Made by a program: the position numbers and the translations under genes
In this document: piece after piece, positions 671-7,200 of the stretch
Position numbering within the stretch: the first letter of the stretch is position 1
Layout of the letters: each line of letters begins with the position of its first letter
The notes under the pieces: generated by a model
Told to the model about the DNA's origin: nothing
Databases searched by the model: none
Seen by the model: the letters and a program-made list of their open reading frames with translations, nothing else
Assembly (NCBI GenBank): GCA_951406725.2
Contig: OX597834.1
Span: 13,826,001 to 13,890,000 of the forward strand
Direction: 5' to 3'
Source of the DNA: Octopus vulgaris
Taxonomy: Eukaryota
Length of the DNA: 64,000 nt

Positions 671-1274
671 TATATAGATATATGTATGTGTGTGCTTATG
701 TTTGTTTGTGTTGGAGTATGTGATGTTGTGTGTGTGTGTGTACGTGTGTACACAATAAATATTCAGCCAACGCTCTTCGATAAAGGTGACGTTGGAGCGA
801 CGCCTGAAAGGACGTGGAGAGAACCAAACATAGGTAAGGTTAAACGGTTCAAATTTGTGTGCGTGGGTGTGCCTCTGTTTGTGTGGACAGACGTATTAAT
901 GTTCTCAGCCTAGAAAGGACAGAATCTTTCACATTACATTACGAGCGTATCATATTTACACAGCATTTCCACTTTAAATCTGGGTGTATCCTTTCTTCGT
1001 GGACGTTTATCCCTCTTTAACCGACAACACCACGTATGTCATGAAATATCGTGGACATGCCGAAAAACGGGAAGGCACTATTGTAACGAGTACCCTCGCT
1101 ATTCTATCCGTTGCTTGGTGCATTTAATATATGGAATGGAAGGTATCATACAGTGTCTGAATACCCAACATTATCAATCTCATATCTATAAATTGTAAAT
1201 TACATATATATATGTTGTATTTTCTATTTCAATAATTCTACTTGTTTTGATATTCAGTATTAATTATTTTACAG

Positions 1275-1289
1275 GTGGTTCCGTGGTCA
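1275..1289 (+). CDS. Micro-exon 1 (15 nt, phase 2-2), WFRG(Q)
   Basis: ttttacag|GTGGTTCCGTGGTCA|gtaagtaatctatttt. Confidence 0.8.
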
Positions 1290-4200
1290 GTAAGTAATCT
1301 ATTTTGCATCTAATATAATTGATATATATACACCTCGTATTACTTTACATAGATACATATATACATATATATAAACATATATATATATGTATCTATGTAT
1401 ATATGTATATTTGTATATATAGGGTATTCGGGCTAAATGTAGCAGCTTGCATAAAATGAAAATAGAAAAACATCCAGTGTCCAGTTCCAAAATAGAAATA
1501 TCTTTAAATATTTTTTAAGTAAAAGCTGGGATGTTCCTGGGAGGTAATATTTTTCTCACCGTAGCCACCCTTAACTTCCACCACAGATTCAAGACGGCTT
1601 CCCGATTTGGCGCTTCCGGTCCTCCCGATTTACCTGTCAAGTTCTTCGAACACCTTCATGTTTCCTAGCATTTGTTTGAGAGGGAGAGCGGTTTGTGTCT
1701 TTCTGCAATGTGCCCCATAAGTAATAATCCTTGGGATAATAAGTGAGGAAATCTGATCAACAAAAAACGCAGCTTTTGAAGGCACATTTATTCTTTGATA
1801 ACCACATTTTACTATTCATATAAATATATATATATACATATATATATATATATATATATATATATATATATATATATATATATATATATATATATATATA
1901 TTTATATATATAATATATATATATATTTATATATATATATATATATGTATATATATATATATATATATATATATATATATATATATATATATATATATAT
2001 ATATATATATATATATATATATATATAATATAATTCGAGACAAAACCACTATTTTGCAAAATAAACAAGGAAAGACTTAATCAATACATATAAATTTTAA
2101 TATAAAGTAAATAAAGTTATTTATTTATTTATTTATTTATTTACTTTATATTAAAATTTTATGTATTGATTAAGTCTTTCCTTGTTTGTTTTGCAAAATA
2201 GTCGTTTTGTCTCGAATTAATATTATATAATATTTTACTATAAAATTGGATTGAATCCTAAATCTGATTTTTTCCCTGTAAATTTGGATTTATTCCCTAA
2301 TATTTATTATTATATATATATATATATATATATATATATATATATATATATATATATATATATATATATATATATATATATATATATATATATATATATA
2401 TATATTTCCGTTAAATTTTGGTGTTGGGGAGCCAGCCAACTAAGGAATAGTTCCTATCCAACATACTCCTGGTATTGTAACACACAGCCTTTGCATGTGT
2501 AAGTATTCTTATAATATTTCCTTATGTTTTAGAATTAATAGACATAATAGAATGTATACCGGCTGATGCATATCAATTTTGCATCCCCTCCATTTTCTTT
2601 TTCACCGTATATATAGATATATATATATGCGTGTGTGTGTGTGGGTGGGTGTTTGGGTGTGGCTGTGTGTGTGTGTTTATGTGTGTGTGTATGTGTGCAT
2701 GTGTGTGTGTGCACAACAAGTTACAAGCCAACGCTCTTCGACAACACACATATCTCGTGAAATATTATGGACATGCCGAAAAACGGGAAGGCACAACGGC
2801 AACTAGTATCCTCGCTATTCCCGCCGTTACTTTGTGGTTTTAGCATATGGAATGGGAGTTATCAAATACTGTCTGAATATTCAACATTATCAATCTCATA
2901 TGTATAAAATGTAAATTATAAATATAGATGTTTAATTTTGTATTTTGCTAATCGATTTGATATTTCACATTTACTCATTTACAGGACTCTCCAACGAACG
3001 TGAGTAATCTATTTTTCAATTAATGTTATAGAGATATGAACCTGGTATTACATTATATATATATATATATATCAACAATTGAGGGTAAAATTAATTAATT
3101 AATCAATTTCACCAAGTGTTCAGTATGTAAAAGGACCATTTAAGGCGAATTCAAAATATTACATTATATAATTAGGGCTTAGTAAAATAAATTACTCCAG
3201 ACAGCTCACGAGCTGTCTGGAGTAAACATTATCTGAGAGAAATTTTCTTTAAGTAGTAGAAATGCTAAGAAAAAAAATATTTTTGGCTGCTATTTCTACT
3301 AAGTTCAGTATGTGGCAAAGTAATTTATTTTACTAAGCCCTAATTATATAATTTTATATATATATATACATATATATATATATTGAGACGTGTGTGTTCG
3401 TGTGTATGTATGTGTGTAAATTCTTATGTATAGGGCATTCGGGCCAAATGTAGCAGTAAGGATAAAAATAAAATAGAAACACATCCAGTGTCCACTCCCA
3501 AGTCCCCAAATAGAAATATCTTTAAAAGATGTATACCTATTCATTTTGTTTTTTGGCGTATCTATATATACACACACACACACACACACATATATATATA
3601 TATATATATATATATATATATATATATATATATATATATATATATATATATATATATATATATATATATATATATATATATATATATATATATATATATA
3701 TATATATATATATATATATATATATATATATATATATATATATATATATATATATATATATGTATATATATATATTGTATTGTATTGGCATCCTTTCTGT
3801 CTCGGGAGACAATGGAATTGCGCATGTTTTTTTTTTTGTTTTTGTTTTTTTTGTTTTTGTTTTTTTGTAGTCTAATCCGGCTTTTATATTTCATGTCCTG
3901 ATACATTTCGTGCTGTGGCTGTGTAGTCCTATCCTGGACAAACACTCCCTCTGGCAGGTACCGCAAATGTAGCGAAGACTGTTCCTGGCTGGTTGTAGTG
4001 CCATAGTCTCTTGTTGACGTCTCTTCCTTTCTTTCCATTTCTCCTCTCTCTCTCTGTCACTCTTTTGTATTCCCTCTTTTACTGTACGTCGCCATTCTGC
4101 ACGGTTGCCGGCAACTGCCTCCCAACCGCTAATATTGATGTTGCAGACCTTCATATCCCTTTTGCAAACATCCCTGTATATATATATATATATATATATA

Positions 4201-7200
4201 TATATATATATATATATATATATATGTTTGTGTGTGTGTGTGTGTGTGTGTGTGTGTGTGTGTGTACACAACAAATTACAAGCCAACGCTCTTCGACAAA
4301 AACGATGTTTGAGCGAGACGGAAAGGAATGGAGAGAGAGAACAAAACATCTGTAAGTATACACGGTATGACTTTGTGTGCCTCTGTGTGTGTGGATAGAT
4401 GTAGACAGACGTATCAATGCCCTCAGTCTAGAAAGGACAAAATATTCCGCATTACATTTCGAGCGTATCATACTTACACAGCATTTCCACTTCCATGTTG
4501 GGTATATTCGTGAGCGGTACATCATTTGTACGATGTGGAAAATATACCGCCAACTTTGTCCAAACGACCTAAACATTAGCTTCAAGGTTCATCCAAGACT
4601 TGGACCACGAGCTATACGTCCCCTGCCCAATTCAAGATCACAACATACATGTACACTGCAACATAATTTATTTTCCTCAGCAGGCCCTGCCCCATTTAAC
4701 ATTGTCCCGAGGGAGATCAAAGAGGAAAAGGATCCCATCAACTTTAAACAGAGTCTGGATAGATTCCTTCAAAGAATACTAGACAAGCCACCCATAATTG
4801 GATACAACTCACCCAACAAGAACTCACTACTTGAACAAAACTGGATACAACTCACCCAACAAGAACTCACTACTTGAACAAAGCTGGATACAACTCACCC
4901 AACAAGAACTCACTACTTGAACAAAATTTGACTTAAACAAAACTTGACTTAAACAGGATTCGAATAATCATATCAGGTGGTGCTATTAAGTTAGACATGG
5001 CCTGGACCAATCTTTGGTCGAAACATATCTAAGTTTTATCTAAGTTTTATCCTTTCTACAAGGACGTTTATCCCTCATTAACCAACAACACCACATATCT
5101 CATGAAATATTGTGGACATGCCGTAAAACGGAGAAACACAACTGTAACGAATACCTTCGCCATTTCAGCCGTTACTTTGTGTTCTAAACATAAGGAATGC
5201 GAGGTATCAAACAGTGTCTGAATATCCAACATTATCAATCTCATATCTATAAAATGCAAACTGTGAAAACTCCAGCGAAATGTCCTTACTTGGAACTCTG
5301 AGTGATTCATTAGAAAAAAAACATCTACACCCCAAAAAAGCGTACACACAATATAATACCTCCTGCACATTCGATGCAATCATTTATGGATATGTGTGCG
5401 GTATGGACTTTTTGTGTACGTGTGTGCGCATGCGTAAAGATATGTTGATAGAAAGATAAGATGTTATGTATATAGAACTATTCAAAGAAATACACATACT
5501 CAAATGCACATAAACATATATATTACATATATAGGTGGTTTATTTTGTATTTCATAACCGATTTGATATTTAACATTTATTTATTTACAGGAAACGCGCA
5601 TCAATGTGAGTAATCTATTTTGTCTTTCTCCTTTATTCTGTTGCACTATTTCCCTCTTTCATTTGTTTTAGACATTTTACTGTGGCCATGCTGGTGCACC
5701 GCCTTTAGTCGAGCAAATCGAGCCCAGGTCTTATTCTATCTGTCTCTTTTGCTGAACCGCTAAGTTACGGGGCCGTAAACACACCAGCGTCTGTTGTCAA
5801 GCGATGTTGTGGGGGGGGGGGGGCAAACACAGACACACAAACATATACACACACATACATATATATTAATATATACGACGGGCTTCTTTCAGTTTCCGTC
5901 TACCAAATCCACTCACAAGGCTTTGTAGAAGACACTTGCCCAAGGTGCCACGCAGTGGGACTGAAGCCGGAACCATGTGATTGGTAAGCAAGCTACTTAC
6001 CACACAGCCACATATATATATATATTTTATTTATTTATAGGTATGCACATTTGTATGTATGTATATACATGTTTGTATACAAATATACATATGCGTATGA
6101 ACTCTATATTTTACTCATGTGTTTTATTTTATTTTTTTCCTTACAGCTTTTCTCTTGACCCGTGAGTATTCTTCTTATATATTCATCATATAAATCTGTG
6201 TGTGTGTGTGTGTGTGTGTGTGTGTGTTTGTGTGTGTTTATATACCTATATGTATATGTACGCATGTACATTTGCATGTATATTGGGCCGCATATAAATG
6301 TATGAATGAGATCTAAAATGTTTGTTTACTAACATATACATGTACCCATAGTTAGTGTCCATGTTTCTGTGGGAGTTTGACAATAAAATGTACGTTAGCT
6401 GCTATGTATATGTCTTATAAATAATGAAAAAGAAAAGGGAAAATATGCTTTTCGTATGGAATGTCTCGCATATTAACATTGGTTTTGAGTCATATTCCTA
6501 AGAGAGGGCGACAATTATTAACAACAAACCTGTATTTACGCCTTGATGTATTCATTAATGCTTGTGCTTTGTGATTTAAGATATTTTCAAACGGGTTACA
6601 AGCACTGAAAATGATGAAGTTTATTTTATATTTGTTAGCATACACCACGCGTAATTCAATTAGAAGATGACATAGAGCGATTTTTTTTTTCCGGTGAGAC
6701 AAATTGTAGTGAAATAATTTTTAACAGATTATTGGTGTTTGAATAGTGACCAGCGTGGTGCAATATTAATACTGAATGAATCAGTATACGTCTATTGGAA
6801 ATCCTTTCTCGAAACGAATGCTGTTATACTCTGTGTTTCTAAAGTATTGGGTTGTCCGGAAAGTTCGTGCCGATTTATAGAAGCTTAACTTTCGACTTAT
6901 TTTAGAACTTGGTTGAGTCCATAAAATAGGATTTCATTACACCTCCATTAAGAGCACAGATTAATTTATCTTTTCGTGAAAGAAGGTTTACGTTCCTATG
7001 TGTTAATTCTGTAACTCTTTAAAATGGAAGATGAAAAAGTTAATTTTCGCCACTTGATGCTTTGGGAACCAGACAAAATTTGCTGCAGCTCGGCTGGGAT
7101 GTGTTACCCCACCCTCCATATTCACTAGATATTGCTCCTTCAGATTTCCACTTATTCAGGTCTTTGCAGAATAGTCTTAATGGTAAAAATTTCAATAGCT

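Follow-up and report, generated by a model that had tools for sequence, protein, structure and literature searches.

How arrays of micro-exons arise, as in the micro-exon genes (MEGs) of schistosomes and the bicycle genes of aphids, has mostly been inferred from old genes that can no longer be aligned. The same question is raised by a locus of Octopus vulgaris on OX597834.1 (contig C21), where a predicted gene contains a tandem array of intron-exon cassettes, each with an exon of 15 nt. The stretch analysed, referred to here as the window, comprises the 64,000 nucleotides from 13826001 to 13890000; all positions are window-relative, and negative positions lie upstream of the window. The six cassettes are of graded age and keep alignable introns, which makes it possible to follow how the array grew and what became of each copy. 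The locus presents a real, datable growth of a micro-exon array with a probable selective signature, the evidence for selection coming from 60 nt. The exons of the older cassettes differ mainly at positions that change the amino acid, and selection has likely retuned the predicted cleavage linker which they encode; the probability of this reading is estimated at about 0.55.

Growth of the array by tandem duplication

An initial annotation, made from the letters of the window, described three 15-nt exons (E1, E2 and E3) lying in three paralogous cassettes with three shared blocks. All were found where described, with exon identities of 5/15 (E1/E2), 7/15 (E2/E3) and 2/15 (E1/E3), while the array itself proved to be twice as large as the window reveals. 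A genome search with cassette 1 as the query returned six matches, all at one locus, and three of these precede the window. The six tandem cassettes have their exons at -5188 (C0), -3090 (Ca) and -1572 (Cb), followed by C1, C2 and C3 in the window.

The window cassettes lie on the plus strand, and their predicted micro-exons are all 15 nt long with phase 2-2. C1 (750..1345) comprises intron blocks, the acceptor flank, E1 (1275..1289; inner codons W-F-R-G) and the downstream flank, and forms a young triplicate with Ca and Cb, whose exons match E1 at 14/15 and 15/15 positions. C2 (2668..3055) contains E2 (2985..2999); a deletion that removed sequence between its 16-mer and its distal block has made it shorter. 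C3 (4225..5621), whose nearest flank relative is C0, contains E3 (5591..5605) and carries insertions at about 4500-5040 and 5261-5457, which part the shared blocks from the exon; homology beyond its donor stops after 16 nt. The shared blocks are a 16-mer at 765, 2726 and 4281, a 20-mer at 1166, 2882 and 5227, and a donor motif at 1290, 3000 and 5606. The repeating unit is about 1.2 kb long and consists of five segments in constant order between successive exons, broken by differing insertions. This order, confined to the locus, bears out the proposal that the array grew by tandem duplication of intron-exon cassettes. The divergence of the cassette flanks is graded, ranging from approximately 1-5% up to approximately 25%. 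The young triplicate was also considered as an assembly duplication, which was rejected, as identity between its units is 87-96% and insertions distinguish them.

The initial annotation had itself raised the possibility that the shared blocks are a dispersed transposon. This is true of the 16-mer, which has 73 exact matches genome-wide, on most large contigs (control 1), but not of the entire cassette. The 246-nt context of the 16-mer has only four genome matches, all at the cassette locus, and the 16-mer is likely a repeat remnant that travelled with the cassette unit. Five of the six genome-wide matches of the 20-mer are at the cassette locus and one is elsewhere (control 1). The pattern of an acceptor, 15 nt and an extended donor has six matches in 2.8 Gb of genome, all at the cassette locus (control 0). 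In the 214 kb round the locus, a strong-site pattern gave nine matches on the plus strand with 15-nt inserts, none with inserts of 14 or 16 nt, and none on the minus strand.

Divergence of exons and introns

Among the old cassettes the flanks are 73-91% identical (raw values) and the distal block (38% GC, at a distance of 80-500 nt from the exons) shows 83-89% identity, while exon identity is 13-53%. In alignments scanned in 15-column intron windows, no window was as low as the exon in four old pairs (C1-C2, 0/282; C1-C3, 0/273; C0-C3, 0/79; C0-C1, 0/118); the same check was less clear-cut for C2-C3 (2/242) and C0-C2 (10/126). The exon-versus-flank test was performed with splice cores removed and composition corrected, because the flanks are AT-rich and reach 62-63% in alignment even when shuffled, and exons were allowed a 25% faster rate. 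Exon divergence significantly exceeded flank divergence in four of the six old pairs, namely C0-C3 (P=1.8e-4), C1-C2 (P=2.5e-3), C1-C3 (P=5.5e-5) and C0-C1 (P=1e-3); on the intron tree, the pairs C0-C3 and C1-C2 are independent of each other. In the cleanest pair, C0-C3, the flank is 7% diverged, and exon changes occur at 7/10 of codon positions 1 and 2 and at 0/5 of position 3. Simulation on the intron tree gave 4.2 expected changes at positions 1 and 2, where 17 are observed (0/20,000 runs; P=0.01 at a fourfold rate), and 2.1 at position 3, where 4 are observed; the third positions keep pace with the introns. CpG hypermutation or decay was rejected as a source of the changes, since transversions outnumber transitions in 6/6 pairs.

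The claim that the exons have diverged more than their introns therefore holds for four old pairs and for positions 1 and 2, but it does not extend to the young triplicate or to the E2/E3 pair. Several results weigh against selection as the cause. Two of the six old pairs fall short of significance (C2-C3, P=0.12; C0-C2, P=0.26), and the AT-rich flanks align at 62-63% even after shuffling. Comparing position 3 directly with positions 1 and 2 gives P=0.04-0.37, depending on the set and the null, over 60 nt in total. In the young triplicate (Ca, Cb and C1), the exons are identical at 14-15/15 positions and the flanks are 96-99% identical, with one replacement in three copies and no exon excess; fast exon change is thus not immediate after duplication. 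For Ca-C3 (P=0.0008) and Ca-C1 (P=0.024), the distal block gives a distance different from that of the proximal flank. This mosaic structure suggests conversion or unequal exchange, and the intron distance may therefore understate the age of the exons. At three paralogous genes on contig C15, linker exons diverge by 0.27-0.37 against 0.28-0.33 for flanks, at all codon positions, with core exons somewhat slower; linker exons at about the flank rate fit relaxed constraint. As to the expression of the gene, its own protein was absent among the matches of all protein searches. The diversifying selection claimed at the outset is therefore likely but not established, because replacement changes do not significantly exceed silent ones and the cassettes have a mosaic structure.

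The encoded linker and the explanations for its change

The cassette exons occupy the slot of a 27-33-nt exon which, in four paralogs, bears RxK/RR, the furin consensus. E3, which encodes the K-R of a furin-type motif, resembles the 3' end of this paralog exon and starts with K-R codons identical to those that end it. Joining exon 4 to E3 alone gives RLKR and joining it to E0, the exon of C0, gives RLRR; E2 and E3 together give RTKR, the last full codon of E2 being its P4 Arg. With all six exons in, two motifs flank about 21 residues with three W-x-R-G units. Unlike in the paralogs, the furin motif of the cassette gene is thus split across exons and duplicated. Of the 64 subsets in which the six exons keep their order, none contains a stop; 33 have one motif, 8 have two and 23 have none. 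Judged by the motif, the predicted secreted protein would be cut at the linker by a furin-type protease, and the cassette exons encode parts of this predicted furin linker, not free recognition modules. The P4 Arg of E2 would arise by chance about once in ten by our own codon count, which further tempers the selective reading.

The following history would account for the array. In the ancestral state, exon 4 would have been spliced to an E3-like exon, giving RLKR. The all-phase-2 architecture would have let this exon and its introns be copied in frame by unequal crossing-over. The first copy would have retained the dibasic pair (RLRR) and E2 would supply a new P4 Arg (RTKR), while the middle copies would have lost the dibasic pair and then been triplicated recently. 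The structural side of this account, common to the first two rival explanations considered below, is highly probable. Selection on the cassette exons is likely, and would have altered the copies by keeping or rebuilding the motif at both ends of the array and removing it from the middle.

The rival that survives best is that the introns make the exons look younger than they are. Conversion or unequal exchange would have homogenised the introns, and tracts crossing an exon would have been purged by purifying selection on distinct exon roles, as in the primate L/M opsins. This is possible, though clearly less probable than selection. It agrees with the mosaic distances within cassettes and with the very different branch lengths of the distal-block and proximal-flank trees; moreover, E1 differs from the others at 3/5 third positions, and positions 1 and 2 are, partly by our own arithmetic, about as different as in unrelated sequences. 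A precedent exists in gibbons, for which PMC3213168 describes L/M opsin exons more diverged than introns through intron gene conversion. Like the cassettes, the opsins are tandem duplicates; opsin silent sites, however, have diverged too, whereas octopus third positions are near the intron level in three of four exon lineages. Third positions among E0, E2 and E3 differ at only 0-1/5, and four random sequences would show at most four changes across the four free third positions with P=0.027. Conversion would also have had to act repeatedly on either side of a 15-nt exon, only tens of bases away from it.

It is unlikely that the linker is simply unconstrained, with splicing constraint conserving the introns near the micro-exons and small numbers accounting for the low exon identities. 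The contig C15 linker exons, evolving at about the intron rate, and the two non-significant old pairs fit such a view, as does the comparison of family proteins P0001 and P0020, in which the linker is the fastest module (10/25 residues differ, against 11/84 and 11/61 in the cores). The family linker is indeed loosely constrained in general, but only the cassette exons surpass the intron rate, which neutral change cannot do. The 38%-GC distal block remains 83-89% identical where the exons are 13-47% identical, and the excess survives both removal of splice cores and a fourfold rate.

The weakest rival, that the exons are alternative or mutually exclusive modules of a variable recognition surface, as in the recognition, immune or gamete-interaction role first suggested, is very unlikely: all exon subsets are in frame, small exons are skipped in paralog isoforms and the architecture is like that of schistosome MEGs and aphid bicycle genes, but the exons map onto a basic linker at a predicted furin site that would either be cut off or remain as a loose end, the exons of three copies are near-identical, and RTKR requires E2 and E3 together. 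Nothing in the analysis spoke for an immune or gamete role as such.

The gene, its family and known systems

The gene model has 19 exons with 281 stop-free codons, and a candidate terminal exon brings it to 20. Homology, reading frame and splice sites are the basis on which the exons are predicted. Every intron except the last is in phase 2, so that any cassette can be added in frame, and 17/18 internal exons are of phase 2-2. The 13 small exons are open in just one of three frames; the other reading frames were rejected on account of stops. Exons of up to 36 nt hold 210 of approximately 921 coding nt (23%), and exons of up to 81 nt about 55%. The first exon, found by a hydropathy scan, is hydrophobic, and the signal peptide is accordingly predicted by hydropathy, not by a dedicated predictor. 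Four conserved exons were placed around the array by tblastn with 30-75% identity to family proteins, the exons flanking the array matching P0001-P0011, and the open frame joins the conserved N- and C-terminal cores of the family.

Downstream of the array, the predicted exons continue on the plus strand. Two 15-nt exons not of the cassette family, E4 (6147..6161) and E5 (7963..7977), occupy slots at which the contig C5 paralogs also have two 15-nt exons. They are followed by phase-2 exons of 39 nt (9173..9211; equal in size in four paralogs), 36 nt (10889..10924; equal in paralogs), 30 nt (12335..12364; 30 or 24 nt in contig C15 paralogs), 24 nt (14251..14274; with the family's conserved Trp, and 27 nt in paralogs) and 63 nt (17230..17292; 54 nt in paralogs). 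A 93-nt exon (18523..18615) belonging to the conserved C-terminal core is about 50% identical to paralogs, and a 74-nt exon with a conserved Cys (23738..23811) ends in phase 1, as in one paralog. The candidate last coding exon (27626..27702) is the first and most family-like of 11 candidates and would encode a hydrophobic tail resembling a GPI signal or membrane anchor.

A paralog, P0007, lies on the minus strand of contig C21 at about 13781000-13807700 (L008-L011; window-relative -18300 to -44700), head-to-head with the cassette gene; about 1.8 kb separates their start codons, and the genes may share a promoter. A block of about 250 nt was spotted by eye twice in the first intron region of the cassette gene (L008, approximately 6900-7120 and 9220-9480). 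Fragments at 4500-5040, 7044-7463, 15603-16200 and 34520-34891, in introns and beyond, are presumably LINE- and mariner/Tc1-like, and one of them encloses three repeats of a 43-nt unit (4799-4926). Arrays of two to three copies of a 181-184-nt unit, apparently one dispersed repeat family, occur at 29048-29417, 35648-36201, 42309-42681 and 59544-59885.

The 138-nt exon upstream of the array matches eight other places of the genome at E<=10, seven of them clear paralogs on contigs C21, C15 and C5, and a profile from seven such exons found 11 proteins, each an uncharacterised protein named for an Octopus species. The family members include LOC115220626, LOC115220522, LOC106881475, LOC115222984 and relatives (P0001-P0029). 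These proteins begin with a hydrophobic segment, contain two conserved cores and a basic linker, and in most cases end in a hydrophobic tail; 7/9 of those scanned have RxK/RR at the linker position. The paralog exon series (39, 36, 27, 54 and 93 nt) and its phases are shared with the cassette gene, and the six extra 15-nt cassettes were found in 0/7 mapped paralogous loci. Annotated paralog isoforms lack single 30-, 39- or 96-nt exons.

Profile searches, including the 1.84-billion-sequence search, gave no family match outside Octopus save P0030; this protein, the sole non-family one of the five matches in that search, is a spurious tandem-repeat translation and was dropped. Pfam showed no family above the cut-off for 11/11 members or for two exons, the best match in a PDB sequence search had E=0.58, and ESM Atlas gave no usable match for the family. 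The AlphaFold model of P0007 has a mean pLDDT of 48 and no fold match at E<=0.001. In the literature within reach, which included few subscription papers and no supplements, nothing was found on the gene, the family, six family locus identifiers, octopus micro-exons or micro-exon duplication with furin.

Two paralog clusters show features of their own. On contig C5 (101405000-101565000; L057-L072) there are three recent tandem paralogs, each with two 15-nt phase-2 exons and without RxK/RR. A 34-residue block is tandemly repeated in a contig C5 paralog, and an O. sinensis relative has it up to three times, with shorter isoforms; exon duplication has therefore occurred elsewhere in the family too. 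On contig C15 (30594000-30735000; L035-L049), three paralogs have a Gly-rich hydrophobic stretch directly after the basic motif, spanning the 30-, 39- and 36-nt exons that are skipped in annotated isoforms. This stretch, just after the predicted cleavage site, may resemble viral fusion or membrane-active peptides.

Schistosome MEGs have most of their coding sequence, about 75%, in exons of up to 36 nt. With 23%, the cassette gene falls short of this. It resembles MEGs in its secreted-type protein, many short exons and long introns, clustered paralogs, fast protein change, symmetric short exons and hydrophobic, signal-peptide-like start, and the annotated octopus paralogs share the exon-skipping isoforms. 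It differs in that the octopus is free-living and the micro-exons lie between two conserved cores and encode a predicted cleavage linker; no sequence relation was found. MEG exons measure 3-81 bp (PMC10526429), and for MEG-3 one exon duplication linked to a transposon is cited (PMC4350168). Bicycle genes, according to bioRxiv 10.1101/2021.09.24.461719, have many small internal exons, nearly all in phase 2, a signal peptide and rapid evolution. All these traits recur here, with the signal peptide predicted, but the octopus family is small (8 loci found in the genome, against hundreds) and has a predicted furin linker and hydrophobic tail. Neither bicycle-gene homology nor the CYC motif was found, the profile searches giving Octopus proteins and one spurious repeat translation; the likeness is convergent architecture at most. 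The cassette gene is a member of neither the MEG nor the bicycle family.

An excess of exon over intron divergence is known from snake-venom genes. In conotoxin genes, introns are conserved within the family and one exon has most of the point changes, as outlined in PMC3862624. The contrast of conserved introns and a fast exon is alike, but in the octopus it lies between exon copies inside one gene, and what changes fast is a linker instead of a mature toxin with a Cys framework; nothing points to a role of the cassette gene in venom.

The unstudied family appears to consist of predicted secreted, furin-cut, membrane-anchored proteins, with a linker remodelled by exon duplication. If all six micro-exons were included, two cleavage sites would enclose a peptide of about 21 residues, and exon skipping would vary its length with the frame intact. 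It is rather unlikely, though conceivable, that the second furin site arose from a duplicated half-site and that the copies in between were selected into a new releasable Trp/Phe-Arg-Gly repeat peptide, its length set by cassette number and skipping. If true, this would be a secreted peptide born inside the linker of a pro-protein, with the steps of its origin recorded in the introns.

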